In this document: one piece after another, positions 16,425 through 33,894 of the stretch
How positions within the stretch are numbered: position 1 is the stretch's first letter
Layout of the letters: the number at the start of each line of letters is the position of its first letter
Assembly (NCBI GenBank): GCA_030615605.1
Contig: JAUWYY010000005.1
Span: 119,067 to 183,066 of the forward strand
Direction of reading: 5' to 3'
DNA from: a bacterium
GTDB taxonomy: Bacteria > Armatimonadota > Zipacnadia > Zipacnadales > Zipacnadaceae
DNA length: 64,000 nucleotides
Program-made: the position numbers and the translations under genes
The notes under the pieces: generated by a model
The model's input: the letters and a program-made list of their open reading frames with translations, nothing else
What the model was told of the DNA's origin: nothing
Databases searched by the model: none

Positions 16425-16440
16425 AAAGCGAGGAGATAGA

Positions 16441-16907: not shown

Positions 16908-19091
16908 ATGAACAGACACGAACAGGACTACACTCTGGAAGAGCGCTTGGCCAGGTCCGGCCTCAAAGGCCATCCCGGGGCCACCGCGGCCGCGGCCGCA
17001 GCCGCCCTTTCCGGGGATGAGAATCTGCTCAATCGGCTGGTGCAGTTGCTTGATGTCCACGCGGTCATGAACATGGCCGAAGACCACGCGTTCGTGCTGA
17101 ATCAGCCCGAGCCTGAAGACCTCCCCGCTGAGGGCATACCGTGGGTCTGGACTCTGCGCAACGACGGGTCGGCCTTCCCCTGCCCGTTGCCCACCGAGCA
17201 AGACTGGAATGCCTGCCTGCTGGGCACCACCGGTGTGGGGAAAAGCTACGGCGTCAAACACCTGGCCACCCAGCTGCACTTGGCCGGGGAAAGTGTGTGG
17301 ATCTTCGACGTGGAGAACGAGCACGCTGACGTGGCCGTGCAATTTCCTGCAGAAGAGTTCTTAGTGATCGACTACCAGCAGCTCAAGCGCAACATCTTCC
17401 AGCCAGTGCCCGGGGAAAGCCCCAAGGAGGCTATCCACCGCTGCCGCTCGGTGTGGCGGGAGTCGTGCTTCTTGCGCGACGGCAGCGAGAACATGCTGGG
17501 GGACATTCTGTGGCGGGAATACGAGAATCGTGGCGTGTTCCGCGGCAGTCGCAACTACCTCACGCTCGCCGACGTCTGCACCGACCTGACTCGCAAGAAA
17601 TACCGCACCCGCTCGCGAGAGTTCGCGTACTGGGAGACCTTGATGAACCGGACAACCTCGCTGGAGCAGCTTTTGGGTGAGCCTTATGATTGTGTGGAAG
17701 GCTTTGATCTGAGTGAGCTGGTCGGCAAGTCGATGGTCCTGCGCCTGCGGGGCATGGCTGACCAGCTCCGGCTGTTTTTCCTCAACGACCTTATCACCGC
17801 TGCTCTGACCTGCCAGGCACTGCGTCCGGGCAACACCCTGACCATAGTCATTGAAGAAGCCCACCTGACCTACTCTGCGTGGGAGCGGCGCAGTGACCTG
17901 GCCGAGCCGTGCATTCTGCAGGCTGCTCGCCGCGCCCGCAAGCGAGACACACGGCTGGTTTGGGTGGATCAGGTGCCGGCAGCGATGCCGCCTCAAGTAC
18001 TGGCCACCACCCGGGCCAAGACCATCTTTCGCCTCGAAGACGGCGATTCGAAGCGCACGGTGGCCCGCAGTTGCTCGCTGACGCGGGAGCAGGAGGAGTA
18101 CTTGAGCGAGATTCCCGAGAGATGTGCCGTGCAATTCCTGGGCGGTCTGTATCCCAAGGCGTTTCTGGTCAGGTTTCCCGAGCTCAATTTCATCCAGCCT
18201 ACGGAGGCGGAATTGGCCCGCAGGATGCGCCTCGTTCTGGCAGGCCTTCGGTACATGCCCAGACCGCAGCAGCCCAGCCCACCAACTCAGAAAGTGGTGG
18301 CGAAAACCACCCCAAAGGTGGAAGTCAAGCGCCAGCCTGCTCAGAAGGAGCCCACAGCATCCTCACTCACACGGGATGCCATTGACTACCTGATTGAGAT
18401 TGCTAAACATCCTTTTGAGACGGTAACGGAACGAGATGCCCGGCTGGGTCACAGTGGCTACATGGGTGCACGGCTGAGGGATGAACTGGCAGAACGCGGA
18501 CTGGTCGAGCCCTGCCGTGTCAATACCGGCAGGAGGGGTGGAACCATCGTGCTCTATCAGCCGACAGCCACCGGGTGGCGACACCTGAAGTCGGTGCTGC
18601 GCGTGCAAGTAGACCGCCCTCGCGGCAAAGGCGGCCCGGAACATCAGTACTGGCAGCACCAGGCAGCCGCTTGGTGCCGCAGTCGTTTTCCTGACAGCGA
18701 GATAGTGATAGAAGATCATCGCCTGGGCAAGGCAGTGGACGTGGCAGTGTACCTGCCTGACAGCCGCAAGATCGCCATGGAGATTGCCTTGGGTACGGCC
18801 GAGAAGCAACTGTTTGAAGTCGGCAACATCGAGGCTAACCTGGGTGTGGGCTATGACCAGGTGATCGTGGCGGCACGCACCGAGAAGGACCTCGACCGGA
18901 TCAGACGGACAGTGGTCCAGGAGCTGGGCGAGGATGCTGCTAGCAGAATCGAGTGGCGGCGGTTGCGTGAATTCCTGGAACAATCCGATAACGGCGCCGC
19001 AGAAGTCTTAAGTGATCAGCAGTCCCTGGATCTTTCGACACCTACCACACCAAAGGTGATAGTGAAAACGAAAAATGAGTCTGGCCTGTAG
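16908..19091 (+). CDS. HerA/FtsK-superfamily P-loop ATPase fused to winged-helix and PD-(D/E)xK-like nuclease domain
   Basis: RBS 'AAAGGAGAGATCGCA-ATG'. Walker A 'LLGTTGVGKSYG', Walker B 'LTIVIEEAHL'. C-terminus 'AVDVAVYLPDSRKIAMEIALGTAEK..GNIEANLGVGYDQVIVA' has a nuclease-like fold. Located 70 nt upstream of an integrase. Confidence 0.75.
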   Translation: MNRHEQDYTLEERLARSGLKGHPGATAAAAAAALSGDENLLNRLVQLLDVHAVMNMAEDHAFVLNQPEPEDLPAEGIPWVWTLRNDGSAFPCPLPTEQDWNACLLGTTGVGKSYGVKHLATQLHLAGESVWIFDVENEHADVAVQFPAEEFLVIDYQQLKRNIFQPVPGESPKEAIHRCRSVWRESCFLRDGSENMLGDILWREYENRGVFRGSRNYLTLADVCTDLTRKKYRTRSREFAYWETLMNRTTSLEQLLGEPYDCVEGFDLSELVGKSMVLRLRGMADQLRLFFLNDLITAALTCQALRPGNTLTIVIEEAHLTYSAWERRSDLAEPCILQAARRARKRDTRLVWVDQVPAAMPPQVLATTRAKTIFRLEDGDSKRTVARSCSLTREQEEYLSEIPERCAVQFLGGLYPKAFLVRFPELNFIQPTEAELARRMRLVLAGLRYMPRPQQPSPPTQKVVAKTTPKVEVKRQPAQKEPTASSLTRDAIDYLIEIAKHPFETVTERDARLGHSGYMGARLRDELAERGLVEPCRVNTGRRGGTIVLYQPTATGWRHLKSVLRVQVDRPRGKGGPEHQYWQHQAAAWCRSRFPDSEIVIEDHRLGKAVDVAVYLPDSRKIAMEIALGTAEKQLFEVGNIEANLGVGYDQVIVAARTEKDLDRIRRTVVQELGEDAASRIEWRRLREFLEQSDNGAAEVLSDQQSLDLSTPTTPKVIVKTKNESGL

Positions 19092-19161: not shown

Positions 19162-20235
19162 ATGAGAAGCACTGTAGCTGAACATCAAAGCCAGGCAACG
19201 ACAGTAAGCCCCGGTTGCCAGTTGGGAGCGGCCGTTGTCGCTGACAACGAACAGGGAATCCACAATTTCCAGTACTTGGTGGATTCTTTTCTGACCTATC
19301 TTGAGCAGTACCGCCAAGCTTCTCCGCTTACCCTACAAGCCTATGGCCGGGATCTGAAGCGGCTGCATCGCTTCCTGGTGTCTCATGGCCTAGCGACAAA
19401 TGTCCGCAACATTACCAGCCGCGAGCTGCAGGCCTTTGCTGTCTCGATGAGTGGACTGGCTCCAGCCACGATCACACGGGCACTGAATGCTACCAGTTCG
19501 TTATTCAGTTATTTGATAAGAAGCGGTCTGGCAGAGTCCAACCCGGTCGACAGCGTGATCAAGCCCAAGCAGAGGCCTAGTCTGCCCCAGGGGCCAACCG
19601 TTCAGCAATGCCATCGGTTGGTCCAGGCCACTAGCGATATTCGCGACCGAGTTATGATCATGCTGCTGTTGACTGCGGGCCTGCGCCGCTCTGAGCTGCT
19701 GAATTCGCGAACCAGCGATTTGACAGCCGATCTGAGCCGCATTCGGATTATGGGCAAAGGCGGCAAGGAACGGGTAATACCTCTGCCGGAACAGACCCGG
19801 CGAATACTTGAGCAATACCTGGACGAGAGAGAATCAACCTCAGAGCTTCTCTTCCCTAACACGCGCGCCAAGCGCATGGGCAACTCGACGTTCTATCGAA
19901 TCTTCAAGCGCATTGTGAAGAGAGCCGGGCTTGACCAAGCAGGCATCACCGCCCATAGTCTGCGTCACGCCTATGCCACAATGCTGCTGCACTCGGCAGT
20001 GGATGTGAAGACAGTCCAAGAGCTGCTGGGCCATGCTGACCTGAGCACTACTTCACGCTACCTGCACTCGGATGACGCCACCAAGCAGGCTGCCGCTGAG
20101 GCGCTGCCTGACTTGCTCAGCGCGAATGAGGGGCAGGACACACTGAGCGAGAGCCATAGCGAGGAGGCCACGGCCGTTCACCCTAAGAAATTCCCCGCCA
20201 AGAACCGAATCAAATCAGTCTTCAAACGACTATAG
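19162..20235 (+). CDS. tyrosine recombinase, XerC/XerD-like integrase
   Basis: Core-binding domain plus catalytic 'LRRSE', 'HSLRHAYAT', 'LLGHADLSTTSRYLH'. Confidence 0.85.
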   Translation: MRSTVAEHQSQATTVSPGCQLGAAVVADNEQGIHNFQYLVDSFLTYLEQYRQASPLTLQAYGRDLKRLHRFLVSHGLATNVRNITSRELQAFAVSMSGLAPATITRALNATSSLFSYLIRSGLAESNPVDSVIKPKQRPSLPQGPTVQQCHRLVQATSDIRDRVMIMLLLTAGLRRSELLNSRTSDLTADLSRIRIMGKGGKERVIPLPEQTRRILEQYLDERESTSELLFPNTRAKRMGNSTFYRIFKRIVKRAGLDQAGITAHSLRHAYATMLLHSAVDVKTVQELLGHADLSTTSRYLHSDDATKQAAAEALPDLLSANEGQDTLSESHSEEATAVHPKKFPAKNRIKSVFKRL

Positions 20236-20789
20236 TATAAGATAAGGCTGAGTGGATCAGGAGAATTGCACTTGACCTTGGCAGGAAGTCCGGGCGTAGT
20301 TCCGGTAAGTAAACTCGTTGATTAGCTTCGGACTCACAGAGTCGGGAAGGCAGGCTCGAGGAGACAGCCGCATGAGGGCACGTGAGGAAGAGTGCAAGAT
20401 GTGTGCTATTGGCTCAGGGGGTTGCACAATTGCTGTGCAAGGTGGCCTGCGCTTCTGTGTTTGAGCGAGCATATGACAGCACATATGATGCGGCGAGAGG
20501 TATTGAGGCAGGCTTAGACTGGCAAGCAGGCGGTGAGAGAAGGCCAATGTTTCGAGGTATCCAACTCGGGCGGTTGCGCGATAGGAGCGCAGGAGCATGC
20601 CCGTTAGCTGTCCGAAGGCCGCTAATGTGGGTTCGTTCAACCGAAAGGGCCTCCGGACAGCCCACAAATGCCTGACTCTTGTACATGCATCACCAGGGCA
20701 GACAGGGACCTGTGGCAGATTCGAAGAACATCGAACAGACCAGAAGGTAGGTGAGGAATTCCGGTTCTACAAGTAAACAGGAGGAGAAC

Positions 20790-20843
20790 ATGTTAGAGAA
20801 AAGAGGATTTGCCTTGATTGAATTGATGGCGGTGGTACTATGA
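20790..20843 (+). pseudogene. prepilin-type N-terminal leader stub (MLEKRGFALIELMAVVL*)
   Basis: Strong RBS 'AACAGGAGGAGAAC-ATG' followed by the classic prepilin cleavage/methylation motif 'KRGFALIELMAVV', then an immediate stop. No downstream in-frame pilin body. Confidence 0.35.
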
Positions 20844-21395
20844 TATTCTGGTGTGCTCCCGATAAGGAGTATGCCGTCAGACAAGCCCTGCGCGGCGTGG
20901 ATGCCACTATCTTTGATTGCTCGATCAGCAGGGCTTACTGCTGTGGTAGGAAGTAGAGAACTATGGTCGGCACCGGGAGGAATTCGTGATTGACTCAAAG
21001 AATATTATCCGAAACGAGCACCTGGATGAGAAATCCAGGTCAAACAGATGCTGTCCGGCAAAGTGGCTTGGTCGACCTACGAGTTCGGTCACATACCCGA
21101 GGCTGCCGCCGTCTGTCAGGAGATAATGGAAAAATACCCGGATTCACGTCACTCCGGGGAACCGAGCGATCTGTTGGATCAAATTCGCCGTGTCGGAGCA
21201 CCGAGCGAGTGAGGCGCAGCGGCATAAGGTCGCGGCAAGCAGCAAGTCGACAAGAACCGGTTGACGGTGATGTCGTCTTGGCAGCACACTATTCTGGAGG
21301 AATGTCACCATCGCGTCGACGGGGAAGCAAATATGGATGCTACTTAGTCGCGGACAAGGACAAACAGACAGAGATTTTGGGCGGAGGCTCTCATA

Positions 21396-22445
21396 GTGGG
21401 TGGCACTTTCGACAGCCTGAGCCGGGATGCCAGACCTCCGGCCGCAGACTCGACGGCACAAATCCCAACGCCAGAACGTGTCTGGGCAGAGCTTGTCCAG
21501 CTCTGCGCAGTAGGTATGGGTTTCGACAGCCAGATGAGCCTGCCGCATCGACAATTCCAGGAGGACTTGCCTGCTGTCTTCGACCTGAGCCAGAGACACG
21601 GGGTGACGGGACTAGCCTATGAGGGATGCGAGAGAATGGGATATGCCAAAGCTATGGATCCGCACCTTATCAGACAATCAGCAATAAGCTTGCTGCTTAC
21701 AGGAGCAAGGCAGAAGCAGCACGGTCTAGCAATCGCAGAGAGCACAGATGCGCTGGAGAGCGCCGGCATCCGTAGCGTGGTGCTCAAAGGGCTGGCCACA
21801 GCCCATATGTGCTACTCTGACCCGGCGTTACGGCCCTCTGGCGACATTGACCTTCTTGTGGATGTTGACAACAAAGAACGCGCGATAGCGGCGTTGCTCA
21901 ATATTGGCTACGAGGTCCGGGCGGATCCCGTGCCCACCAGTCATATTCTGGCATTTTATTACGCGATAAGCTTAATTAGGGACGGCATTACCATTGACCT
22001 TCACTGGGACCTGCTGAACTGGGGCAGGGAGATCCCAGAGAGCCCGACGATAGAGATTGCAGAGAGGATGCTCAACCGTCGGGCCCTCAGGAAGCTGGGT
22101 GAGGCCGAAGCTTGCGTTCTGACGCCGGGCGACGCGCTGTTGAGCTCCTGCCTTCACCTGTTCGCTCACCGCGGAGAGCGGCGTCTTCTGTGGCTGTGTG
22201 ACACAGCTGCGTTGGCCAGGCATCTCAGGCCTAACCAGTGGTCCGGGATCCGAGGAGAATTAGCGCGGTCCGGCCGTATGGAAGTGTTAGGCACTGCAGT
22301 TCGCACGACACTGGCGCAGGCATGCCGTGATTTTGGCATACCCACTGGACTGAAGTTCTGCAAGGGACTGCCGTGCAGTCGTGCACTACAGGACCTGTTC
22401 GTGTGGCGGCCAGACCTGCACCCGAGGCACAACTTTGATCGCTAG
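21396..22445 (+). CDS. nucleotidyltransferase-family protein (NTP_transf_5-like) of HPr-rel-A-type RiPP cluster
   Basis: 'GIRSVVLKGLATAHMCYSDPALRPSGDIDLLVDVDNKERAIAALLNIGYEV' is the minimal nucleotidyltransferase motif seen next to PqqD/HprK-related kinase genes. Confidence 0.6.
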   Translation: MGGTFDSLSRDARPPAADSTAQIPTPERVWAELVQLCAVGMGFDSQMSLPHRQFQEDLPAVFDLSQRHGVTGLAYEGCERMGYAKAMDPHLIRQSAISLLLTGARQKQHGLAIAESTDALESAGIRSVVLKGLATAHMCYSDPALRPSGDIDLLVDVDNKERAIAALLNIGYEVRADPVPTSHILAFYYAISLIRDGITIDLHWDLLNWGREIPESPTIEIAERMLNRRALRKLGEAEACVLTPGDALLSSCLHLFAHRGERRLLWLCDTAALARHLRPNQWSGIRGELARSGRMEVLGTAVRTTLAQACRDFGIPTGLKFCKGLPCSRALQDLFVWRPDLHPRHNFDR

Positions 22446-22624
22446 AATGAACGGGTGTTGCCAGCAGGCCGTTTCGCATTCACGTCTCTCCCACATCTCA
22501 TCGCCCTGCCGTCGCTGGGTTGAACGCGGCTGCCCGAACACGCGACAGGCGCGGCACTCGGAGACCATTTCCCGACCCAGCACTTCCCTCACTTGCTCTA
22601 CCGCTACCCGGCGCCGGGCCGGGC

Positions 22625-22907
22625 TCAGTAGTTTCCCGACGCCGCCTCCTTCAAAATGGAATTGTCCAGAGCCTGCTCGGCTACCAGCTTCTTGAGACGA
22701 GCGTTCTCCTTTTCCAGCTCCTTAAGCCGCTTCGCTTCATCTACGCGCATACCCCCATACTCCGCACGCCACCAGTAGTAAGTATGATCCGTTACCCCCA
22801 TCTTCTTGCATACTTGGTCCACCGTAGCTCCCTTAGCTAACTCCACTTCTGCCTGCCGTAACTTGTTGATGATCTGCTCCGGGCTGTGTCTCTTCGGGCT
22901 CATCATA
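22625..22907 (-). mobile_element. IS3-family transposase OrfA remnant (no OrfB)
   Basis: 'SPKRHSPEQIINKLRQAEVELAKGATVDQVCKKMGVTDHTYYWWRAEYGGMRVDEAKRLKELEKENARLKKLVAEQALD' is the IS3/IS911 OrfA HTH-leucine zipper. No DDE OrfB follows. Confidence 0.7.
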
Positions 22908-23121
22908 CCGCCCTCCCTTGCATCCAGATTCCCCAAGTAGTAACATTCAACTGGGCTCGTTCTCAGGGGCAAGGACAGCGACTCGTATGACTTGACAAAA
23001 AGCGCAGTACCTGGCATAATGGGCACATCGTGCGATTATCTCGCGCTGGCGGATTCACTAAAGCGAGACGGATTTAGTAATAGGGGGTACGTGGCAATCT
23101 GCCAGCAAGGGGTGGTGTTAG

Positions 23122-23432
23122 TGTCAAGAAACGATTCGGACCTGGCGCAGTGCGTGGTCAAATCTATCGATACAGTCTCAGAAAGAGTCGGAGAGCAGGT
23201 ATTCGTGTTATCAACACGAGATAATAGATTATTTACCTTCAATGGGGTTGGTGCCGAAATCTGGGAGCTCTTGGATGGGACAAGAACCACAGACGACATA
23301 GTCCAAGCCGTGTGTTCGAGGTTCCATGTCCGTCGTGCAGACGCCCGAAGGGACGTGTCACTGTTTCTCCAACATCTGGCGCAACGGGGTCTGACAGATG
23401 TGTTTGCCAACCTCGCATGCCGCGAAGATTAA
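23122..23432 (+). CDS. PqqD-family RiPP recognition element (RRE) protein
   Basis: 'FVLSTRDNRLFTFNGVGAEIWELLDGTRTTDDIVQAVCSRF...DVSLFLQHLAQRGL' matches the PqqD pattern. Start chosen at the GTG with a GGGGTGG RBS. The ORF is open from 22992. Confidence 0.65.
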
Positions 23433-23530
23433 GACGTAACAAAGACCTCAGCACAAGATTTTGCTGCCTTTCGTGGCGCGAGGGTGCGATTGAGCAGCGC
23501 TAACGGCTCAGGAGGGAGCCCAAGGAGCAT

Positions 23531-24340
23531 ATGCAGGCGGGAAGAGGTGTACGGCAAGTTATTCGGTACACTGCGAAGAAGATACTCAGGATAGGCCATT
23601 GCCTTTCATGCTCTGTCAAACGCCATGGCCTCAACGCCAATGCGGACACGGGCCGAGCCTTGGACCTTGGCTCGGTGAAACTGTCACTTGTCAAGCGGGC
23701 GATTCAGGCACAAGGCGGCTTGATGCTGGAATTTGGGGGGTACAGCATGATGCCCAGCATCCGACCTGGGAATACGCTTAAGGTAGTGAAGGCTAGTCCT
23801 GATACCCTCACAACAGGAGATGTGATAGCATTCTTGGCCGGGAGACGAATTGTGGTGCATCGGATTGTGGGGTTGAAACATGGCTGGCGGAAGTGGTACT
23901 TCGTCACCAAAGGGGATAATTGTCAAGTCGAAGATTCACTCGTTGCACCACACCAAGTGCTTGGAATAGTGTGTAAAATACAGACGGGGGCACTAGGACC
24001 TGAACTATCAAGCTCTGTCACTACCAGTACTATCGGGGGATATGAAATGGACCACCAAGCAAGGCCCGTGGCCAAGCCAGGTGTCATATGTCGTAAAGAG
24101 GATGCCGACGGTGTCCTGTTCGACCACGGTACAGGATCCGCAAAGATCCTGAACAGCGTAGGACTCATCGTGTGGGGTTGCTGTGATGGCAGTTGGACGC
24201 TGTCGTCGATCATTGACATGGTTCACAAGCGGTTCCTCGACGTACCGCGCGAGACCATCTCTGCCGATGTCGACAAGTTTGTAATGGAATTGGAAGAGCT
24301 CGAGTTTCTGAGCATTGCAGAGAAGGAGCTCAGCAAGTGA
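23531..24340 (+). CDS. S24/S26 (signal-peptidase-I-like) serine peptidase fused to a C-terminal PqqD-like domain
   Basis: RBS 'AAGGAGCAT-ATG'. 'GYSMMPSI' (Ser nucleophile box) and 'TKGDN' (Lys). C-terminus 'VLFDHGTGSAKILNSVGLIVWGCCDGSWTLSSIIDMV...VDKFVMELEELEFL' is PqqD-like. Confidence 0.65.
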   Translation: MQAGRGVRQVIRYTAKKILRIGHCLSCSVKRHGLNANADTGRALDLGSVKLSLVKRAIQAQGGLMLEFGGYSMMPSIRPGNTLKVVKASPDTLTTGDVIAFLAGRRIVVHRIVGLKHGWRKWYFVTKGDNCQVEDSLVAPHQVLGIVCKIQTGALGPELSSSVTTSTIGGYEMDHQARPVAKPGVICRKEDADGVLFDHGTGSAKILNSVGLIVWGCCDGSWTLSSIIDMVHKRFLDVPRETISADVDKFVMELEELEFLSIAEKELSK

Positions 24341-25383
24341 AGGACCATCTGCCATCCGCGCCTTTTGCTGCTTCTGTGGCGATTACAGCCCGTTGCAATC
24401 TCCGGTGTAAACACTGCTTTGCTACAGGAGGCGCTCCTCTCGATGACGAGCTTTCTACACCTGAGCTCATCGAATTAGTGCATGGTTTAGCCCGTGCCAA
24501 GATCTTCTGGGTAACCGTGACAGGGGGAGAGCCGCTTTGCCATGATGACTTGCTGGACATCCTCAGCAGCATTGAGGAACACAACATGCGATGCAGTCTG
24601 AACACAAACTGCACCTTGGTGTCTAAGAGTGTGGCTCAGAAGCTAGCTGCTGTTCCTGTACGTGGAGGGATATCAGTGAGCCTAGACGGGTCGAAGGCGG
24701 TGGTGGTCGATGCTATCCGGGGCGCTGGAGTCTTCAAAAGGACGGTTATTGGGATCGAGCAGCTAATTGAGTGTGGACTCACGGTTCGAGGCGTCACTGT
24801 GGTCAACAAGTACAATCAGATGGATCTGCTCAACATTGCCCGACTTGCAAGGGAGCTAGGACTTGTCGAAATAGACTTCAACGACATGGTGGGCGCTGGC
24901 TGCGCCAGCGTTAACGCACTGCAGCTTCAACTGACGCCTTCACAAAGGAAGTACGCGGTTGACATAGTTGACCAACTCTCGGAAGAGTATCCTGGATTCA
25001 TAGGCGGTGCCTACCTTCAATGGGGAAGGCAGCTGAAAGGTTTCTCGAAGAGTCCTGAAAGGTTGTTGGAAGGCAAACAAAACACTCTGGATGGGTGCGG
25101 AGCTGCGTTTAGTGCGTGCACCATTAGACCTGACGGGTGGGTCGTTCCTTGTGACGCACTGTGGGATGTGAAGGCCGGCAATGTTAGACAAGAAGACATT
25201 GTGTACATATGGCGAAGTTCCCGGGTTTTCAACGAATTTCGAAGGCTCAAAACTGTCAATTTGGGCCAAGTGCCAGGCTGCAGTGACTGCCAGTACAATA
25301 CGCTGTGCCACGGAGGATGTCGTGCCTCCGCCTACCATGCAACTGGTAACTTGGCGGGCCGTGACCCATTCTGTTGGTATTGA
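24337..25383 (+). CDS. radical SAM enzyme with C-terminal SPASM domain (RiPP maturase 1)
   Basis: 'CNLRCKHC' (CxxxCxxC). C-terminal Cys cluster 'GCGAAFSAC...PCD...CSDCQYNTLCHGGCRASAY'. 4-nt overlap with the upstream gene. Confidence 0.85.
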   Translation: MKDHLPSAPFAASVAITARCNLRCKHCFATGGAPLDDELSTPELIELVHGLARAKIFWVTVTGGEPLCHDDLLDILSSIEEHNMRCSLNTNCTLVSKSVAQKLAAVPVRGGISVSLDGSKAVVVDAIRGAGVFKRTVIGIEQLIECGLTVRGVTVVNKYNQMDLLNIARLARELGLVEIDFNDMVGAGCASVNALQLQLTPSQRKYAVDIVDQLSEEYPGFIGGAYLQWGRQLKGFSKSPERLLEGKQNTLDGCGAAFSACTIRPDGWVVPCDALWDVKAGNVRQEDIVYIWRSSRVFNEFRRLKTVNLGQVPGCSDCQYNTLCHGGCRASAYHATGNLAGRDPFCWY

Positions 25384-25410
25384 CGTCAGGCGCGAGAGAA
25401 GCGTCAAATC

Positions 25411-26502
25411 GTGGAAAGAGCGTGCCCCAAACTCAGGACGATGTCGTTGCACGTCACGGGCAGATGTAATTTGAGGTGCCGCCATTGCTGGGTAAGCCCG
25501 GCCCCAGCTGAGTGCTCGCAGATCGGCAGCGCAGAACTCAGCCTTGCCGAGATTGACGCTGTCATGTCCGAGGCGGTTACCCTCGGATTAGGCTCAGTAA
25601 CAGTAACCGGGGGGGAGCCGCTATTGAGACCAGACATACTGCAAGTACTTCGATGCCTCCGTAGTCACGGTCTCTCGGCATCGCTTGAGACAAATGGCAC
25701 ACTGGTTGATGATCGAATCGCGGAAGACCTTGGTGGTGTGAGATTGGCCGTGGTAGCGGTGAGCTTGGATGGCGCGTGTGGGGATACACATGACAGGTTT
25801 CGCGGCGTTATCGGCGCATTTGAAGCCACAGTTCACGCCATCGAATTGCTCAAGAAGCGGGGCGTTTTTGTGCAGGTCATAACCTGTGTGTGGAAGGGTA
25901 ACTGTGACGAATTGCGTAGCATTTTCGAACTGGCTTGCCGTTTGGGAGTGGACGAATTGAAAATCACCCCAATCTCGGCATTTGGTCGCGCTAGCAACAA
26001 GATGAGCACGAAGCAACTACGCTTGTCGATGCCAGCACAGTTGGAACTTCACCAACGCGTGAGTTCGTGGGTCAGCGAATCGGGGCCAACACGTGCATTC
26101 TTTTCTGTACCGTACGCGTTTCGACCATTGGACAGCCTAGCCAAGAGTATGCATCCGTGTCCGCTTCACACCCGTCTGGGGGTACTGCACGACGGTCGCG
26201 TTTCTATTTGCGGGATCGGAGAAGCAGATGGGAAGCTCCTTTTCGGCAACATTCGTGAGACTTCCTTGGCACAGTTATGGCATCAGAGTCTTGGTCTGGC
26301 AGAAATACGGAGGAGAATCCCCTCCGAACTCGAAGGGGTATGTGGCAACTGCATTCTGAAAACATACTGTCTCGGATTCTGCCGATCCGCGGCATATTTG
26401 GAGAGCGGTTCTGTTACGGCTCCTAATTCGTTCTGTCAAGAGGCGCTCGAAAGGGGATTGTTCCCACGCTCCAGGCTGATTGATCCCAATCTAGCTACAT
26501 GA
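25411..26502 (+). CDS. radical SAM enzyme with C-terminal SPASM domain (RiPP maturase 2)
   Basis: 'CNLRCRHC'. C-terminal 'CPLH...ICGIGE...CGNCILKTYCLGFCRSAAY'. Start may be the internal ATG (MSLHV). Confidence 0.85.
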   Translation: MERACPKLRTMSLHVTGRCNLRCRHCWVSPAPAECSQIGSAELSLAEIDAVMSEAVTLGLGSVTVTGGEPLLRPDILQVLRCLRSHGLSASLETNGTLVDDRIAEDLGGVRLAVVAVSLDGACGDTHDRFRGVIGAFEATVHAIELLKKRGVFVQVITCVWKGNCDELRSIFELACRLGVDELKITPISAFGRASNKMSTKQLRLSMPAQLELHQRVSSWVSESGPTRAFFSVPYAFRPLDSLAKSMHPCPLHTRLGVLHDGRVSICGIGEADGKLLFGNIRETSLAQLWHQSLGLAEIRRRIPSELEGVCGNCILKTYCLGFCRSAAYLESGSVTAPNSFCQEALERGLFPRSRLIDPNLAT

Positions 26503-27546
26503 TTGCGCACTAGGCAAGGTGCGAAAACGCCGCATTGTTCGCGCGTCAAGAGGATTGAGACGATGGGTCATCTGACACTTGAGATTGGTGGAGTGAGCCT
26601 GCTGGTCCGATCCGAAGGCAAATTGTGTGCGAAGTTACGACCCCTTATGCACGGCTTTCTCGGCGAATCCAATGAGGCCGATTGCGTTGTACACGTAGTG
26701 GTACTCGAAGCGCGACCGGGTAATGGTGGTGTGACAGCAGATTGGGCGAAAGGACTGAGAACGTACGTCCAGGAGCAATGCACAAGGTTGTTTCCTAGAT
26801 CCCGCTTGGGCCCTCAGTTCGACCGGGTTGTGGAGTCGAGAGTCGGGGGTTTGTCCCCGTACTGTGACTCCGAAAGATTTCGTGATTGCTTCGACAGATT
26901 TCGCGGATGCGAAGGGGGGCACATTGTATGCCACATTGGGTTCGACCACGTCACATTCCTGGACAGGACCGAAGGGACTGGCACACTGTTTGGGCTGAGC
27001 GGCGCTTGGGGAGGTTTTCCGTGTGATCGTCGGCTGTTGTGGTTGGCCACAACTTGGTCCGCACTTGTGCCACCGTCCGATGGGCTGTTGCTGCATGCGG
27101 CAGCGATTGTGAAGGGTGCCCAGTCTTATATATTCGCTGGCGAATCCGGAGCGGGCAAGACGACGGTGGCCGAGCGATCGCCTGCAAGTAATGTGCTGAC
27201 GGACGAGATTGTGGCCGTGCGTAAGGTAGGAGACGAAGTACGCGCGTACAGCACGCCTTGGCGGCAGGCGGAGGGGACAGCGGACAAGAGCCGAGAAGCG
27301 ATTGTACAGAAGGTGTTCTTCCTTAGGCACGGGGATCGCACCTACTTCCGCGAGTGCCAACAGAATGAGGCGGTGCCCTGGCTGATCGCAACTGAATATG
27401 AGACTATGTACTCAGTACTAGTAGATCCGGCTCGGACAAAGGGAGTGTTCAGATCTTGCTGTCAGCTGGCAAACAATGTGGGCTGTTATGAGATGTACTT
27501 TCACAAGGACAGAGATTTCTGGTGCGAGTTGACCCTCTTGACATAG
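26503..27546 (+). CDS. HprK-related kinase (HPr kinase C-terminal-domain-like P-loop protein)
   Basis: P-loop 'IFAGESGAGKTTVAE' in a context resembling the HPr kinase C-domain. Clustered with PqqD and nucleotidyltransferase as in TIGRFAM 'HPr-rel' systems. Start could be the internal MGHLTL. Confidence 0.55.
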   Translation: MRTRQGAKTPHCSRVKRIETMGHLTLEIGGVSLLVRSEGKLCAKLRPLMHGFLGESNEADCVVHVVVLEARPGNGGVTADWAKGLRTYVQEQCTRLFPRSRLGPQFDRVVESRVGGLSPYCDSERFRDCFDRFRGCEGGHIVCHIGFDHVTFLDRTEGTGTLFGLSGAWGGFPCDRRLLWLATTWSALVPPSDGLLLHAAAIVKGAQSYIFAGESGAGKTTVAERSPASNVLTDEIVAVRKVGDEVRAYSTPWRQAEGTADKSREAIVQKVFFLRHGDRTYFRECQQNEAVPWLIATEYETMYSVLVDPARTKGVFRSCCQLANNVGCYEMYFHKDRDFWCELTLLT

Positions 27547-27566
27547 ATTGAGGTATGTGGTATAAT
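27538..27566 (+). promoter_or_regulatory. consensus sigma70 promoter: TTGACA-17nt-TGgTATAAT
   Basis: TTGACA at 27538-27543, exactly 17 nt, then TATAAT at 27561-27566 preceded by TGg (extended -10). It overlaps the kinase stop codon and is oriented toward the precursor-peptide ORF about 320 nt downstream. Confidence 0.6.
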
Positions 27567-27892
27567 ATGTCCCTGGGGTAGCCGAGTGTGGCTCACGGAA
27601 CAGGAGGACAAACGCGAACCAACCACATGAGTGCACGGTGTTACATGATCCACGGGGGAAATGGCTCCAGAATTGGCCCTGGGGGGGAGTGGTGAGTCTG
27701 GCCGGGTAAGCCCTCGGAAGAACGGCTGCGGAGTCTACACAAGGTGGGACCTCGCGGCTCAGCCCCGGCTCAGAGCGACGAAAACCAGCGTGTGCTTGAG
27801 GCGAAGAATAGACTAGAGCGCAAAACGAAGTGCCAACTAGGCGCCACTAGTATGTTAGCATATTGCGTGAAGCTAAAGGCAGGTGTGTGAAC

Positions 27893-28093
27893 ATGGGTGA
27901 ATTAGATAGTAAGACTGCTATAGGATCGACGGACAGCGAAATCAGTGTCCAGTACGAGCCGCCTCGTGTGCTTGATCTCGGGGAGCTCGGCGAACAGGCG
28001 TGGGGGGCCGGACCTTTGGGAACGTGCACGAGTCCCGGAAACAGCCCAGGTAGACCCGGCACGTGCGTGAATCCCGGCAATAGCCCATTGTAA
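27893..28093 (+). CDS. candidate RiPP precursor peptide (66 aa) with tandem Cys-containing core repeat
   Basis: RBS 'AGGCAGGTGTGTGAAC-ATG'. Acidic leader 'MGELDSKTAIGSTDSEISVQYEPPRVLDLGELGEQAWGAGP'. Core 'LGTCTSPGNSPGRPGTCVNPGNSPL' is two copies of GTCxxPGNSP. Located between the maturase genes and the ABC exporter. Confidence 0.55.
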   Translation: MGELDSKTAIGSTDSEISVQYEPPRVLDLGELGEQAWGAGPLGTCTSPGNSPGRPGTCVNPGNSPL

Positions 28094-29018
28094 TAGCGCC
28101 ACGTCGAACAGAAACCGTCCGCGGATGCTGCGCGGCCAAGCAGGCGGGTGGGGGCCATATAGTGTGCAGGTCGGGCAAACTGCTGCCCACCACGCAACGA
28201 ACTGGGCGCAGAGTGGTGCTCGGGTCCGGAGGAAGCGGGTGGGTGTCGCGATCAGTGTACGTTGTGGCCTACTGGGATGCGTGCAGACGGGTAGCTATGT
28301 GAGCGCTGTATCTATTGCCCACAGTACGTTTTGGTGCAAAGTGTGGAAGCCGGTCCTTCAGCGACGAGGTGGGATAATGAACGGCTTTGTGCGGAGAGAG
28401 ACAAGGCCGTGCAGGTTGTGGAACGAGTTCTTCGATCTCCGTGGCACTCGGTGGTGACGATACCATGCGTGGATGTCAGCGGGAGCCGGTATCGGGGCGG
28501 GACAGTGGCTTCCCGAGTGGTGAGACATGTCATACGTACTGGCACCGGAAGTGCGGAGCTGTCTGTGTAGTACGGCAACCATCGGGCAGACATTAAGAGT
28601 CAGCCTTATCAAGAGTTGTCGAGGGCTGCGACAAACAAATTATCTGGGCGACACACCCAAAACTCCTGAGTTATTCACTGGTGCGGCAGACTGGCTGAGG
28701 GCACACACATGTGGGTGCCGTGGTGATTGGCTTCTCCAGAAGCCGGGGTGCTCGCACACACTGGTATTAGCGGCTCTCCCATGCTGATTGCACTCATGTA
28801 CAACGGAGTCGCCTCTATCTTGCGCCTGCTCACATGGTTCCTATCGCCGCATTTCGGACGCGATCCCATTCAGAGCAAGGAGGTTCCCCACTCGTCAGGC
28901 TTATGATAGGAGGAGCGCAAGGAGTCCCGCAACCCCCCACAACGCGGGCGTCTGCGCGTTTTCCAACCAATGCTTTCGTGTCTGCCTCACCGTGCTCCCA
29001 CCGTGGATTCTCCGAGAG

Positions 29019-30953
29019 CTACATGCGGTAACGCTCTGCTTGCAAGCCGAACAATTTCGCATAAGTGCCACCAATACACAGCAGGGCCTCATGCGAGCCG
29101 GCCTCAATGATTCTACCGTTTGCCAGCACGAGGATATGATGGGCCATCCTCGTCGTAGAAAACCGATGCGAGATCAACAAGGTCGTCTTGCCGGTCGCCA
29201 ATTTGCCGGCTCGCTTGTATAGATCATGTTCGGCCCTAGCATCAAGCGCTGCCGTAGGCTCATCGAGTACTACAATCGGCGTATCGCGCATAAAGCCGCG
29301 TGCTAGTGCGATCTTTTGCCATTCGCCAGTTGAAAGATCTGTCGATCCCTCAAAGGTACGTCCAAGAACTGTGTCATAGCCCTTTGCCAGCTTCGCAATC
29401 AACTGGTCGGCTGCTGAGCGCTCGGCTGCCCGGGCGACTGATGCCATGTCGTCAACTTGGCTGACGTCACCGAGTCCAACGTTGTCCCGCGCTGTCAACT
29501 CATAACGGACAAAGTCCTGGAAAACCACACTGAACAACCCTCGTAGATAGTCTACATCGTAGTCCCTAATATCTAATCCGTCAAGAAGAATCTGTCCTTC
29601 CACAGGATCATACAGACGTAGGAGCAGCTTTACGAGCGTACTCTTCCCAGCACCGTTTTCTCCGACCAGAGCAGCAGTTGTGCCACCATCAATCCCAAGC
29701 GTCACCCCCTGTAAGACCATCTGGTTCGTACCAGGATATCGAAAATGAACGTTCCTGAATTCTATCTCAGGCGCCTCAGACACCGAAATCATACGCTTCT
29801 CCGACTTGGGCCAGGTAGCTCCCCTGAGCAGACTTCCTTCAAGCGATTGCGGATCCAAGTCTAAGAAATCAAAAAGGTTCTGGAGAAACAAAGCCCCCTC
29901 GTACCCGTACCCGATATTCGTAGACAATATCGTAAGCTGATTGATCGTCGCCCCAATGGCTGAGAAATAGAGAGACACGTCGCCAACGCTGATGGTGCCC
30001 TGCAGAGCCCGAAGCACAACATAACCCCACCCCCCCGCGAGCCCCACGGCTGTCACTATTCCGAGCCCGAGCATCATGCGACTGCGGAGCAGCACAAGTC
30101 CCACATTCTCAGTGAAGAACTTTCGCCATACATTCCAAGTCTCGTCTATCAAGTAGTCTGCCAAGCCAAAGACGCGGATTTCCTTCGCGGCGTCTCGCCC
30201 CGTCAGCAGGTTGCAAAGGTAGGTTACCAGTCTGGTCTCGGGGGCGCGCTGTGTCACCACACTCCAGTTCAGTCGAGCATATCGGCAGTAACCTACAGCG
30301 TAGGGAAGTGAGACGGCGACCGCCCCGACTGCAGCCAGCCAGTGAAAACGAACAAGGACGACTATCATTGACGACAGGGTAACCACCGCTTGAATCAGCA
30401 TAAGGAACCATTGTATGGCACCAGCTACTCTGTCAACACTTGCCCTCGCATTCTCAAGCTTGTCGTAGAAGGTTGGGGTCTCAAAGAAAGCTAGATCCAA
30501 CCGTGCAGCCTTTCGAAGAATACGGAGATTGACGTGCTGGCGCACAAGATCTGAGAAGATCTCGCGGGTGTTGACACTCATACTCGCCTCAACCTGTCTA
30601 ATGACCAAGAGTACGAACTGGGCGCAAAGTAGCCACAATAGGGTGTGAACATTGTCCTGATGTTGTGTGTGTGTAGTCGTGATCGTGGAAGTTATCTCAT
30701 CAAGAAACAGTTTGATGATCCACATCTGGGCGACCGGCGTTAGGCCAGCCACGACGAATGGAACGATGGCGCTCAGCATTCGGCCAGGGCTCACATCCCA
30801 TCCAAGGCGAAATGCAGTTGCGTAGCTGTTGACAGTCTGTTTGACTTCCGCGGACGCCGATGCCAGCCGGTCCGTTACCCTCATCACTGTGCTCCCGCAA
30901 ACGGAGATTGTTGCCAGAGATAGCTCTCCCGAAAGAGAAGGTACGCCATTCAA
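29019..30953 (-). CDS. ABC transporter, fused permease/ATP-binding protein (exporter type)
   Basis: N-terminal six-TM domain. Walker A 'GENGAGKSTL', signature 'LSTGEWQKIALAR', Walker B 'IVVLDEPTAALD', H-loop 'LLISHR'. Confidence 0.85.
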   Translation of the reverse strand: MNGVPSLSGELSLATISVCGSTVMRVTDRLASASAEVKQTVNSYATAFRLGWDVSPGRMLSAIVPFVVAGLTPVAQMWIIKLFLDEITSTITTTHTQHQDNVHTLLWLLCAQFVLLVIRQVEASMSVNTREIFSDLVRQHVNLRILRKAARLDLAFFETPTFYDKLENARASVDRVAGAIQWFLMLIQAVVTLSSMIVVLVRFHWLAAVGAVAVSLPYAVGYCRYARLNWSVVTQRAPETRLVTYLCNLLTGRDAAKEIRVFGLADYLIDETWNVWRKFFTENVGLVLLRSRMMLGLGIVTAVGLAGGWGYVVLRALQGTISVGDVSLYFSAIGATINQLTILSTNIGYGYEGALFLQNLFDFLDLDPQSLEGSLLRGATWPKSEKRMISVSEAPEIEFRNVHFRYPGTNQMVLQGVTLGIDGGTTAALVGENGAGKSTLVKLLLRLYDPVEGQILLDGLDIRDYDVDYLRGLFSVVFQDFVRYELTARDNVGLGDVSQVDDMASVARAAERSAADQLIAKLAKGYDTVLGRTFEGSTDLSTGEWQKIALARGFMRDTPIVVLDEPTAALDARAEHDLYKRAGKLATGKTTLLISHRFSTTRMAHHILVLANGRIIEAGSHEALLCIGGTYAKLFGLQAERYRM

Positions 30954-31155
30954 CCCTCGAAAACGGACTTGTCCTATGAGACTGTTCAGTTGTATAGTTT
31001 ACCTTGCCTCGTGAAGGAACGCAAGTAGGTATCACACTACTGCCTGTAGGTGGTTCGGCTTTTCGGGCTCTTGCACTACTGATCATCTTCTCAGTCCACC
31101 ACTGGACACAGTCCGCATAAGCGCTGGTCAGAAAGTGAGGCGGTAGTGGGGGCGG

Positions 31156-31900
31156 TTGAAAAGTGCGGCACCCCTTAAACTTAATCAGGGCGGGGGACTG
31201 GCCGTTCGGGAGCTACTGAGCATTGTCCCAGATGGGTTTGAGCCTACAGGAGAAGTGGTGCATACCGACATGAGATGGTGGACACAGATTCGTATCCAGG
31301 TACTGCGCGAGGGGGCCAGCAAGCGTCAGATTCTGCGAGAGACGAGCATCCACTGGAGTACGCTGCAGAAGATCCTGGAGTATCCGGAGCCTCCCGGTTA
31401 CCGACAGAGCAAACCTCGTGCGCCCAGCCCAAGCTAGGTCCCCACATTGGTCGTATCCAGCAGTGGAACAAGACCAGACGGTGTCCAAAGAGCAGTGCCA
31501 CACCACTAAACGCATCTTTGAGCGGCTGCAAGCCGAGGGCTACATCGGCGGCTATACACAAGTGAACGCCAAGGTGCGGGGACTGCAGCAGCTCAGGCAG
31601 GGAGTTCATATGTCGCTAGCGCACCGGCCGGGCGAAGCGCAGATGGATATGGGCCAGGCCCTGGTAAAGCAACGAGGCCAGCTTGGGAAGGTGTTCTTCT
31701 TCGTAATGTGCTTGCCCTACGCGGATGCTTTGCTTGTGCAAACCTTCCCCCGCGCCTGCACCGAGACGTTCTGGGAATTCCACCGGCGGGCGTTTGCTCT
31801 CTTCGCCGGGGTCCCCCTGATCATCTACGACAATGATTGGGTGTTGATCGCTAAGATCCTGGGAGGGCATGAGCGGGCGCTGACTGGCAGCAGAGGATGA
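31156..31900 (+). pseudogene. IS21-family transposase IstA fragment (frameshifted, truncated)
   Basis: HTH 'MRWWTQIRIQVLREGASKRQILRETSIHWSTLQKIL' in one frame. A second frame carries 'TKRIFERLQAEGYIGGYTQV..PGEAQMDMG..LPYADAL..IIYDNDWV'. The protein ends prematurely. Confidence 0.6.
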
Positions 31901-31976
31901 GTCGGCCACAACGAAGGCCAGAGTACACGTTATTTGTTGGCCCGATTTGTCCGAATAGATAGGAGGACATAGTATA

Positions 31977-32339
31977 GTGGACCCCAAAAACTGGACAACA
32001 GAAATGGGTACCAGAAGTAGCATGACCAAGCGAAAGACGTATACGGCAGCCTTCAAGGCCAAGGTAGTATTAGAGCTTTTGCGGGAGGAGAAGCCGCTGG
32101 CGCAAGTGGCGGCTGAGTACGAGGTGCATCCCAGCCAGTTGCGCAAATGGAAGCAGAAGGCGGTGGAGCACCTGCCTAGCCTGTTTACAGACAGCAAGCA
32201 GGATCAGGCGCAGCAGCAAGCCGAACATCAACGCCGGCTTGAACAGCTCTACGCAGAGATCGGGCGGTTGACCACGCAGATAGGGTGGTTGAAAAAAAGC
32301 TGGTATCGACCAGCTCCCGGAGTGAGCGGCGCAAGATGA
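31977..32339 (+). mobile_element. IS3-family transposase OrfA
   Basis: 'KRKTYTAAFKAKVVLELLREEKPLAQVAAEYEVHPSQLRKWKQKAVE' (IS3 OrfA HTH), followed by a leucine zipper and the A-rich slippery region 'GGTTGAAAAAAAG'. Confidence 0.75.
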
Positions 32340-32860
32340 TCGAACGGGACCATCGACAACTGCCGCTGACGGTGCAGTGCCAGTTGCTGGGCGTAAGTCG
32401 TTCCAGTGTGTACTACCGGCCGGTGGCGGTCTCGCCTGAAGAGGTGGGGCTCAAGCACCGGATCGATGAGATCTACACGGCGTGGCCGTTTTACGGTTCG
32501 CGGCGGCTCACGGCGCAACTACGGCGGGAAGGTCATCAGATCAACCGCAAGCGGGTGCAACGCTACATGCGCGAGATGGGTATATATGCTATCTGTCCGC
32601 GGCCGAACTTGACCCGCCGAGCGGGTGGATCTATCTGGTGGCGGTGGTGGACTGGCACTCGCGCTACGTGGTCAGTTGGGAGCTGGTTCAGACCGTGGAT
32701 TACTGCACACCCTGGGAGGTCTATTCTGACTCGCTGGGCCGGCTTGCCCCCCGGGGGGGGCAGCGGTGGGCACAGCGAACAACCCTTTCAAACCCAAGCC
32801 AGGATACCAATATGAATCTAAAAAAGAGCGCTATGCCTGTCTTAACAACGGGGCCCACCT
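32285..32860 (+). pseudogene. IS3-family transposase OrfB, frameshifted and truncated
   Basis: 'LSRSSVYY..IDEIYTAWPFYGSRRLTAQLRREGHQINRKRVQRYMREMGI' in one frame. 'IYLVAVVDWHSRYVVSWEL' (DDE first-Asp region) is in another frame. No complete DDE domain. Confidence 0.65.
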
Positions 32861-33017
32861 AAGCTTCACTTGCGCTACCGGCTTGCTCAAGCTGCTTGCC
32901 GTGTTCTTTCTTCTCCCCGCTGCTTCTTTCTTAGTTCTATGTCTTCCCTCCTAGAGGAGGAGCCTTCTGCCTTGTCTACCTAACGCGCAACATCCCCATT
33001 TGTCCCATTTTCGCTGA

Positions 33018-33362
33018 GGACGTACACCGTTCACGTTTCTCGGCTTTGCCTTTGTCGCCGGACTGCTCATCTCTATCCTGGAGTTGTTCTGTACCGGCCA
33101 GATATACCTTCCTACTTTGATGTATATGTGGAGCACTGAGACTCTGCGGGCGAGGACTTTCCAATTGCTTGTGCTATATGTCGCCATGTTCACGCTGCCA
33201 ATAGTAGCGTTCACTCTAGTAGCCTACGTTGGCGCTAGCTCCCAGCACCTGGCCCAACTGACTCGCAGGCATACAGCACTCGTGAAGCTGGCGATAACCG
33301 GGTTCTTCGTTGTCTTGACCATCTACCTCGGTTCGGTTTCCTTCACCTTATTCTGGGGTTGA
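33018..33362 (+). CDS. hydrophobic membrane protein, possibly a fragment
   Basis: Three predicted TM helices. No confident start (TTG), and it abuts IS debris. Confidence 0.3.
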   Translation, partial: GRTPFTFLGFAFVAGLLISILELFCTGQIYLPTLMYMWSTETLRARTFQLLVLYVAMFTLPIVAFTLVAYVGASSQHLAQLTRRHTALVKLAITGFFVVLTIYLGSVSFTLFWG

Positions 33363-33845: not shown

Positions 33846-33894
33846 CTGGCTGATTTCGCCTCCGACAACGCAAACCAGAAGGGAGCGTTGTCAG

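Follow-up and report, generated by a model that had tools for sequence, protein, structure and literature searches.

An extended SynChlorMet-type RiPP cassette, probably intact, in a mobile-element-rich stretch of an Armatimonadota genome

Among the gene clusters for peptides that are made on the ribosome and modified after translation (RiPPs), the SynChlorMet (SCM) cassette was defined bioinformatically years ago. It is described by the models TIGR04248 (ScmD), TIGR04249 (ScmC), TIGR04250 (ScmE), TIGR04251 (ScmF) and TIGR04252 (ScmA), and the Pfam family PF27840 corresponds to ScmC. Here we analyse a 64,000-nucleotide stretch of the Armatimonadota (Zipacnadaceae) contig JAUWYY010000005.1 (contig positions 119,067 to 183,066; called the window below, all coordinates being those of the window), in which eight genes at 21396–30953 resemble such a cassette. 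We consider it probable that this region is an intact, extended SCM-type RiPP cassette, in which leader binding, radical SAM (rSAM) crosslinking, phosphorylation, leader removal by a peptidase and export would be combined. An earlier reading made from the letters alone (the sequence-only reading) had attributed the same genes to a RiPP cluster of another type, HPr-rel-A.

The cluster among related RiPP systems

Like the SCM cassette, the window encodes a paralogous pair of rSAM/SPASM enzymes, matched best by ScmE and ScmF, a PqqD homolog, a ScmC-type P-loop protein and a small putative precursor that combines a leader of the form YxxPxΦ..DL with repeats of Cys and Gly, in the order D-E-F-C-a that is also found in several related loci. 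It differs from the described cassette by its sub-cut-off model scores, by a two-Cys core with the motif C-x-x-P-G, by an insert of about 60 residues in ScmC and by the fusion of a peptidase to a PqqD domain. The best NCBIfam matches are ScmC for the P-loop protein, ScmE and ScmF for the two rSAM enzymes and ScmD for the fused PqqD domain. The ScmF-like enzyme matches TIGR04251 over its full length (positions 3–353 of 353; 273.6 bits against a cut-off of 400), and the ScmE-like enzyme, whose gene adjoins that of the former in the same orientation, reaches 200.6 bits on TIGR04250 (cut-off 400). The assignment of the pair is reciprocal, the ScmE-like protein scoring 200 on ScmE and 101 on ScmF, and the ScmF-like protein 274 on ScmF and 120 on ScmE. 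For the exact P-loop protein of the window, as well as for nearly all its listed homologs, PF27840 is the precomputed Pfam assignment. The eight relatives tested on the ScmF model, four of them named ScmF by JGI, gave 245–363 bits and thus likewise remain below 400, which indicates that the cut-offs mark a narrow core. The window protein would thus be placed, like any ordinary member, inside the extended family but outside the strict equivalog.

The sequence-only reading had described the region as an HPr-rel-A cluster, a neighbourhood for which TIGRFAM requires three proteins together, HprK-related kinase A, PqqD_rel_X and a nucleotidyltransferase, and had proposed matches to models of the TIGR04352/TIGR04355 type as one check. 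All three protein types are indeed there, the P-loop protein having an HprK-type fold, and this protein gives weak matches to HprK_rel_B (24 bits) and HprK_rel_A (TIGR04352, 18.4 bits). Both scores, however, are far below the cut-offs of 200; the HprK_rel matches span just 30–39 residues at the P-loop (for HprK_rel_A, residues 185–223 around the P-loop alone), ScmC is matched better and PF27840 is assigned. The HPr-rel-A PqqD model is absent from the NCBIfam matches of both PqqD domains at E ≤ 0.01, and in its synteny, its pair of rSAM enzymes and its precursor family the locus follows the SCM type. Membership of HPr-rel-A can be taken as refuted already by the NCBIfam scores, and we regard this label as very improbable. 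This has a practical side for genome annotation, where strict NCBIfam cut-offs miss most of the SCM family and 'HPr-rel-A' is in this case a wrong label.

The parallels to the HPr-rel-A systems and to the lasso peptide tailoring kinases (TIGR04352, TIGR04355; PadeK, ThcoK, PsmK/PsmN) nevertheless extend beyond the trio. They include the HprK/PEPCK fold with conserved His, Lys and Asp, a PqqD protein of the RiPP recognition element (RRE) type, an uncharacterised nucleotidyltransferase, an ABC exporter and a leader of the YxxPxL type. In contrast to these systems, the P-loop protein of the window scores 18–24 bits on kinase models with cut-offs of 200 and carries His-Lys-Asp-Glu instead of His-Lys-Asp-Asp, there is no lasso cyclase or B2 transglutaminase-type protease, and rSAM enzymes are the core maturases. 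A lasso pathway was considered and rejected, the interval 18–36 kb holding no open reading frame (ORF) for an Asn-synthetase-like macrolactam synthetase (C) or a transglutaminase-like protease (B2).

Sactipeptide and ranthipeptide systems (AlbA, SkfB, CteB, PapB) share with the SCM type the combination of SPASM rSAM enzymes and an RRE with Cys-containing precursors, an exporter and a protease, and the rSAM enzymes of the window are weakly similar to SkfB, CteB, StsB and PapB (30–120 bits). The differences are that the RREs of the window stand apart from its rSAM enzymes, that two rSAM enzymes are always paired, that the C-x-x-G-x6 repeat lacks a conserved acceptor such as Asp, Asn or Thr, and that the gene set includes an HprK-fold protein, NTP_transf_5 and an S26 peptidase. 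A short peptide with Cys repeats is likewise joined to a SPASM maturase and a PqqD protein in the GeoRSP (TIGR04302/04303) and ACGX-repeat (TIGR04340) systems, whose models are matched by the PqqD and rSAM proteins of the window with 40–131 bits, more weakly than the Scm models, and whose repeat motif and accessory genes are different. To our knowledge these two systems are likewise uncharacterised.

The ORF map and the Pfam and NCBIfam matches bear out the genes that the sequence-only reading had listed (Table 1). In all eight the frame is open over its full length and the catalytic motifs are intact, and the overlapping or tight junctions (24337/24340 and 26502/26503) argue for a maintained operon. 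The convergent ABC exporter that it had reported is also there, with close homologs of 300–408 bits in related SCM loci, several of which have it in the convergent orientation too. In the letter code used for related loci, the order in the window is N-[IS]-D-PD-E-F-C-a-T(convergent), close to that of several Desulfobacterota and Anaerolineae loci.

Table 1. Features of the cluster and its promoter-like sites in window coordinates
Feature	Position	Strand	Supporting match or motif
NTP_transf_5 family nucleotidyltransferase	21396–22445	+	PF14907, E 2e-38; GDIDLL metal-binding-type motif at residue 149
IS3-family orfA remnant, HTH_Tnp_1 only	22625–22903, open frame to 23026	-	Pfam HTH_Tnp_1, E 2.5e-18
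Promoter-like site P1, TTGACA-17-CATAAT, TG upstream of -10	22992–23020	+	11/12 consensus positions
Stand-alone PqqD-family RRE protein, ScmD-like	23019–23432, ORF open from 22992	+	Pfam PqqD, 68 bits
S26B-type peptidase-PqqD/RRE fusion	23531–24340	+	TIGR02228, 50 bits (residues 70–151); PqqD, 49 bits (residues 195–259)
Radical SAM/SPASM maturase, ScmE-like	24337–25383	+	TIGR04250, 200.6 bits; Pfam Radical_SAM and SPASM
Radical SAM/SPASM maturase, ScmF-like	25411–26502	+	TIGR04251, 273.6 bits; Radical_SAM and SPASM
ScmC-like P-loop protein, predicted peptide kinase	26563–27546, ORF open from 26503	+	Walker A GESGAGKT; PF27840
Promoter-like site P2, TTGACA-17-TATAAT, extended -10 TG	27538–27566	+	12/12 consensus positions
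ScmA-like precursor peptide, 66 aa, putative	27893–28093, ORF open from 27863	+	Family HMMs
Convergent ABC exporter, fused permease and ATPase, MsbA/bacteriocin-exporter type	29019–30953, gene-caller start 30884	-	TIGR02203, 258 bits; Pfam ABC_tran

The precursor peptide and the spread of the family

Related loci were collected by a scan of species-representative genomes with a ScmF alignment, which gave at least 80 loci; the 80 listed, the window not among them, were examined and searched as six-frame ORFs with the window proteins. Counts given below out of 81 come from the first-pass phmmer search and include the window's own contig. The 80 loci represent more than 10 phyla, their sources including Omnitrophota, Desulfobacterota, Planctomycetia, Chloroflexota, Fermentibacteria, Aminicenantes and Methanogenium. 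ScmE was found in 71/81 loci, PqqD in most of the related loci, ScmC in 66/80, the S26-like peptidase in 56/80 and the ABC exporter in 40/81, the usual gene order being D-E-F-a-C-P(-T-N). Homologs of NTP_transf_5 occur in 44/80 loci, and in 43 of these 44 ScmC is present as well (Fisher p 7e-5, a value somewhat inflated by contig truncation).

Clustering of the small ORFs near these cassettes yielded one dominant family of 65 ORFs from 53 loci. Its members carry the N-terminal leader consensus (K/R)-K-Y-E-P-P-x-[LIV]-x-D-L-[GS], followed by cores rich in Gly, Ala, Ser and Thr with 2–16 Cys (median 5), spaced most commonly by 10 residues and mainly by 9–13. A Gly stands at +3 from the Cys in 89% of cases, then come Ser/Thr-rich positions and Ala or Pro at +6; when 59 precursors are compared, no core position is conserved except the Cys and the Gly that follows it. 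Several members match TIGR04252 (ScmA) weakly, which identifies the dominant family as a broader version of the SCM precursor family already known.

The ORF at 27893–28093 (MGELDSKTAIGSTDSEISVQYEPPRVLDLGELGEQAWGAGPLGTCTSPGNSPGRPGTCVNPGNSPL) carries the leader motif of this family exactly, as Y21-E-P-P-R-V-L-D-L-G (YEPPRVLDLG), and its core (...GTCTSPGNSPGRPGTCVNPGNSPL) contains two Cys placed 13 residues apart, each within the sequence G-T-C-x-x-P-G-N-S-P. Hidden Markov models (HMMs) built from 59–65 precursors of the related loci rank it first among the 1830 six-frame segments of the window (E 0.002 with the leader HMM and 2e-4 with the family HMM). A second motif, (E/Q)-Q-A-x-G, is shared with the precursors from Desulfobacterota, and through this motif and the YEPP..DLG segment the ORF aligns with precursors of related loci. 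An AGGTG sequence lies 8 nt upstream of the ATG, and the public annotation of the identical contig calls the precursor as a gene, as it does the 137-aa PqqD gene. The RiPP interpretation of the sequence-only reading had been made dependent on conservation of the small ORF in homologous clusters, and the precursor family is found in 53 of the 80 homologous loci. Taking the leader and the family profiles together, we conclude that this ORF probably encodes a genuine but divergent precursor of the ScmA type.

A further match of the leader HMM, at 52575–52688 on the minus strand, was rejected; it lies antisense inside an ORF of 1180 aa and is devoid of Cys repeats. That ORF (49845–53387) has no Pfam match at E ≤ 0.001, and its neighbours encode MotA/ExbB-like and TPR proteins.

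Several observations weigh against the attribution of the locus to an SCM-type pathway. All Scm models stay below their equivalog cut-offs (ScmE 200/400, ScmF 274/400, ScmC 33/125, ScmD 37–39/100). TIGR04252 does not match the window ORF even at E ≤ 10; a search of 5.8 billion proteins with the window peptide returned the peptide itself alone, with no homolog; and phmmer with the same query against the ORFs of the 80 related loci gave none at E < 1e-3, so that the conservation is visible solely through the family HMMs. The core itself is atypical, having only two Cys and the Gly at +4 (C-x-x-P-G), which is unique among the 65 peptides; this displacement looks like the insertion of one Pro residue. 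The precursor gene does not abut scmC; it starts 347 nt downstream of it, behind a 320-nt untranslated leader, and the IS remnant is situated between the nucleotidyltransferase gene and the operon. The peptide lacks a C-terminal Ser, whereas it is the C-terminal Ser that the lasso kinases target. The thioethers, the phosphorylation and the site cut by the peptidase are proposed by analogy and have not been observed, and our search of the literature found no paper on any SCM product and nothing relevant on PF14907 or on the association of HPr kinase with SPASM proteins.

The ScmF family is very diverse, with a median pairwise identity of 39%. The nearest relatives of the ScmF of the window are 41–43% identical to it, compared with 64% for the median nearest neighbour in the family, and judged by these identities the window cluster is a lone lineage, an isolated member of the SCM family. 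Every one of its proteins is a singleton at 90% identity clustering. In terms of kind, the cluster is a real yet fairly ordinary SCM member of a class without known product, and this kind has already been recognised bioinformatically (TIGR04248–04252, PF27840). What is distinctive about it, as far as its sequence tells, is the minimal and slightly aberrant core, the rarer peptidase-RRE fusion and the insert in ScmC. The class itself is large: a search of 1.84 billion proteins with the ScmC profile yields 14,682 cluster representatives at E ≤ 1e-10. It is widespread in uncultured anaerobes, and the cassette is known from Omnitrophota, Desulfobacterota, Planctomycetia, Chloroflexota, Fermentibacteria and methanogens, among others.

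Strong diversification of the precursors was seen in related loci. Five tandem genes for two-Cys precursors occupy positions 7308–8508 of a Bacteroidota locus (L042), and a deltaproteobacterial locus (L062) has two 119-aa precursors (7506–7865 and 10131–10490) which are unusually Cys-rich, several of the Cys being closely spaced or adjacent.

Proposed leader recognition, crosslinking and tailoring

The analysis establishes gene content, family relationships, motifs, the fold, the promoter-like sites and the fact that both the gene set and the precursor family are conserved; the maturation of the peptide as proposed below, in all its chemical steps and their order, is inferred. The precursor would be transcribed from its own strong promoter P2, and its YEPPRVLDLG leader would be bound by the two PqqD RRE domains, one stand-alone and one fused to the peptidase. 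The ScmE-like and ScmF-like enzymes would act on the two GTC-x-x-PGNSP repeats of the core, most likely producing an intramolecular thioether-type crosslink from each Cys; the ScmC-like protein would phosphorylate Ser/Thr of the core, and NTP_transf_5 may further decorate the phosphate, by analogy with PsmK/PsmN. The leader would then be removed by the soluble S26B peptidase-RRE fusion, which may cut at Q-A-W-G|A, a site of the small-x-small kind, and the product exported by the convergent ABC transporter.

With respect to leader recognition, the two PqqD domains score 68 and 49 bits in Pfam, above the gathering score of 23.4, and 37 and 39 bits on ScmD (cut-off 100). The best NCBIfam matches of the stand-alone protein are lasso_PqqD_Bac (43.7 bits), the GeoRSP PqqD and ScmD, all of them below the cut-offs. 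In actinobacterial lasso peptides YxxPxL is the RRE-binding motif of the leader (PMC6784204), and the Y-E-P-P-x-Φ-x-D-L-G of the window has the same form. Since neither rSAM enzyme possesses an N-terminal extension able to hold an RRE, the discrete PqqD domains are the most likely candidates to present the leader to the rSAM enzymes and the peptidase. In some related loci (L013, L022, L027, L063 and others) the ScmE-like ORF has about 470 aa, being longer by about 120 aa, and is also found by the PqqD-domain search, which suggests that RRE-rSAM fusions exist in part of the family.

The peptidase part of the fusion follows the pattern of S26B enzymes (SipW, archaeal and ER type), in which the Ser stands in GxSMxP, the general base is His and not Lys, and a GDN box is present; the residues are Ser72 in GYSMMP, His110-Arg111 in HRI and Gly128-Asp129-Asn130. 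On TIGR02228 it falls just short of the cut-off (50.0 bits against 51.85). True signal peptidases are membrane-anchored, whereas a scan of the fusion protein for a membrane anchor found no TM-like segment. The catalytic residues are retained throughout the cassettes (Ser of GxSM in 57/58 S26 domains, His of HR in 58/58, the GD box in 55–56/58), and in most of these ORFs no more than about 20 residues precede the domain, which gives them the appearance of soluble peptidases. Fusion to PqqD is rare, being found in L013, L022, L063 and the window (4/57 loci).

Both rSAM enzymes have the Cx3Cx2C motif (CNLRCKHC at residues 20–27 of the ScmE-like protein, CNLRCRHC at residues 19–26 of the ScmF-like one) and the full set of seven SPASM Cys (Cx9-15Gx4C, Cx2Cx5Cx3C and the final Cys). 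They might in principle be maturases of cofactors or other proteins, such as anaerobic sulfatase-maturating enzymes (anSME) or the heme and heme d1 enzymes AhbD and NirJ. Models of AhbD, NirJ and MoaA are matched with 75–159 bits, and in the PDB search anSME structures reach 32 bits for the ScmF-like protein, while none is among the matches of the ScmE-like protein at E ≤ 1e-5. All these matches are weaker than those to ScmE and ScmF, the neighbourhood has no sulfatase or tetrapyrrole gene, and the genes around the rSAM pair encode two RRE domains, a peptide of a conserved precursor family, an exporter and a peptidase. A role outside peptide maturation can hardly be given any weight. The core of the sequence-only reading, a RiPP cluster built around two rSAM/SPASM maturases and PqqD RREs, stands; the two enzymes match peptide-maturase families rather than anSME.

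The best-characterised SPASM maturases acting on Cys-rich RiPP cores, those of the sacti- and ranthipeptides, form S-C thioethers. With conservation in the core confined to the Cys and the Gly, the reaction would most obviously be centred on Cys, and by analogy thioether crosslinks at the Cys are our leading guess, with about an even chance of being correct. The same SCM cluster could, on the other hand, use its rSAM enzymes for C-C or C-O crosslinks, epimerisation or Cys conversions, and its ScmC as an ATP-dependent scaffold or activator instead of a kinase. The nearest characterised relatives of the two enzymes are chemically mixed and all distant (30–60 bits), comprising PqqE and SuiB (both C-C crosslinks), SkfB and CteB (both thioethers) and BlsE; the second-tier NCBIfam matches include WgkB, AhbD, NirJ and MftC, and the scores on maturase models are 113–121 bits for StsB (cut-off 625) and 68–72 bits for PapB (cut-off 340). 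The invariable pairing of two different rSAM enzymes, moreover, for one simple repeat, hints at two reactions. What speaks for thioethers in spite of this is the restriction of core conservation to the Cys and the next Gly, combined with the chemistry of the best-known enzymes on such cores.

As regards ScmC, a sequence search of the PDB with its profile gives only generic P-loop and PEPCK matches, and a fold search was needed. The structural model indicates a P-loop domain of the HprK/PEPCK fold with catalytic-type His, Lys and Asp, and it resembles PEPCK over 227 residues, more extensively than HprK/P, which would suit a non-kinase function. Against this, the catalytic-type His/Lys/Asp positions of the HprK-family peptide kinases are retained. 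The alignment of the ScmC family shows the Walker A Gly and Lys, an invariant His (LLHAA), an invariant Asp with a nearly invariant Glu behind it (L-T-D-E) and the Pro of GTP(W/F); the window protein carries the family-invariant residues. Its insert of about 60 residues (approximately residues 55–115) is absent from all 37 aligned homologs and is modelled as low-confidence helices. Taken as a whole, rSAM chemistry other than thioether formation together with a non-kinase ScmC is a possibility of considerable weight, though not the one that we prefer.

Phosphorylation by ScmC, as assumed in the preferred scheme, has precedents in the lasso tailoring kinases, which have an HprK-type fold with a shared His-Lys-Asp-Asp motif and phosphorylate the precursor peptide (PMC9266682). 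In the case of pseudomycoidin, PsmN comes after the kinase PsmK; described as an 'uncharacterised nucleotidyltransferase', it is required for the attachment of hexose to the phosphate (PMC6993621). The pairing of ScmC with NTP_transf_5, found in the window and in 43 related loci, may be seen as a parallel to the PsmK/PsmN protein types.

SCM cassettes may make a structurally new class of RiPPs, rich in Gly and Ser, stapled every ~10 residues through two rSAM reactions per C-x-x-G, decorated with phosphate-based groups by an HprK-fold kinase and NTP_transf_5 and released by a soluble, RRE-guided enzyme resembling signal peptidases; taken in all its parts, this picture is speculative and rather doubtful. 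If true, the two-repeat C-x-x-P-G-N-S-P peptide of the window would be a natural minimal substrate, maybe with a ring size other than that of the canonical family. The intact genes, their own strong promoters and a core of the smallest kind (two Cys) make the cluster a convenient candidate for heterologous reconstitution, which could address three questions: how the ScmE/ScmF pair acts, whether ScmC is a peptide kinase and whether the S26 peptidases are RRE-guided leader peptidases.

Promoters, non-coding DNA and the mobile-element setting

In the whole 64 kb, on both strands, TTGACA-N17-TATAAT with at most one mismatch is found at two sites, compared with 0.07 expected by chance. Both belong to this cluster and lie on the plus strand, P1 directly before the PqqD gene and P2 before the precursor gene. 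A consensus promoter in front of the small Cys-containing ORF had been claimed in the sequence-only reading, and the case turns out to be stronger than it was put there, P2 being the sole perfect sigma-70 consensus match in the window. Folding of the untranslated leader (27573–27895) is not more stable than that of shuffled sequences (z 0.35), which gives no sign of a riboswitch or structured RNA, and an Rfam scan of 20000–32000 at E ≤ 1 returned zero RNA families. The gap of ~900 bp between the precursor and exporter genes (28100–29019) has no recognisable gene and no second precursor, and the family HMMs have no match there.

The IS3 orfA remnant between the nucleotidyltransferase and PqqD genes had been noticed correctly by the sequence-only reading. 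It lies only 180 bp from the stop of the NTP_transf_5 gene and consists of the HTH_Tnp_1 part alone; it covers just positions 2–82 of the 369-position NCBIfam model of the IS3 transposase, and no orfB follows. A search of 20200–33900 for direct and inverted repeats revealed no IS ends or att-like repeats flanking the cluster.

These surroundings raise the possibility that the cluster is a decaying relic in a mobile-element island, the product of which is no longer made. Apart from the remnant inside it, the cluster has three tyrosine recombinase genes and fragments of IS3 and IS5-like elements on its flanks, the precursor core is down to two repeats with an unusual motif, the distance of its gene from scmC is unusually large, the untranslated leader of 320 nt is long, about 900 bp of apparently empty DNA follow it, and the singleton status of every protein would also fit decay. 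On the other hand, the eight frames are full-length with intact catalytic motifs, the IS remnant disrupts no gene of the cluster, two near-perfect promoters are found exactly where the operon and the precursor need them, and the tight junctions are those of a maintained operon. We therefore find decay improbable and retain the interpretation of the region as an intact SCM-type cassette.

The mobile-element-rich stretch extends over 7292–36288, with tyrosine recombinase genes at 7292–8545, 19162–20235 and 33895–34797, an IS3 orfA with a truncated orfB at 31977–32815 and a DUF772 transposase fragment at 35767–36288 on the minus strand. Just upstream of the recombinase gene at 33895, a 19-nt unit (GACTTATGGACTCATTTTC-like) is directly repeated three times within the segment 33667–33840, which also has an inverted repeat of 23 nt; these repeats could represent an att-type site or sites bound by the recombinase. 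Farther to the left, at 14067–19091, a ThiF/E1-like gene (14686–15519) overlaps an unannotated ORF of 234 aa and is followed by a gene for a 735-aa HerA-like (DUF87) ATPase (16884–19091); this stretch may represent a module of the defence or conjugation type that has nothing to do with the RiPP cluster.

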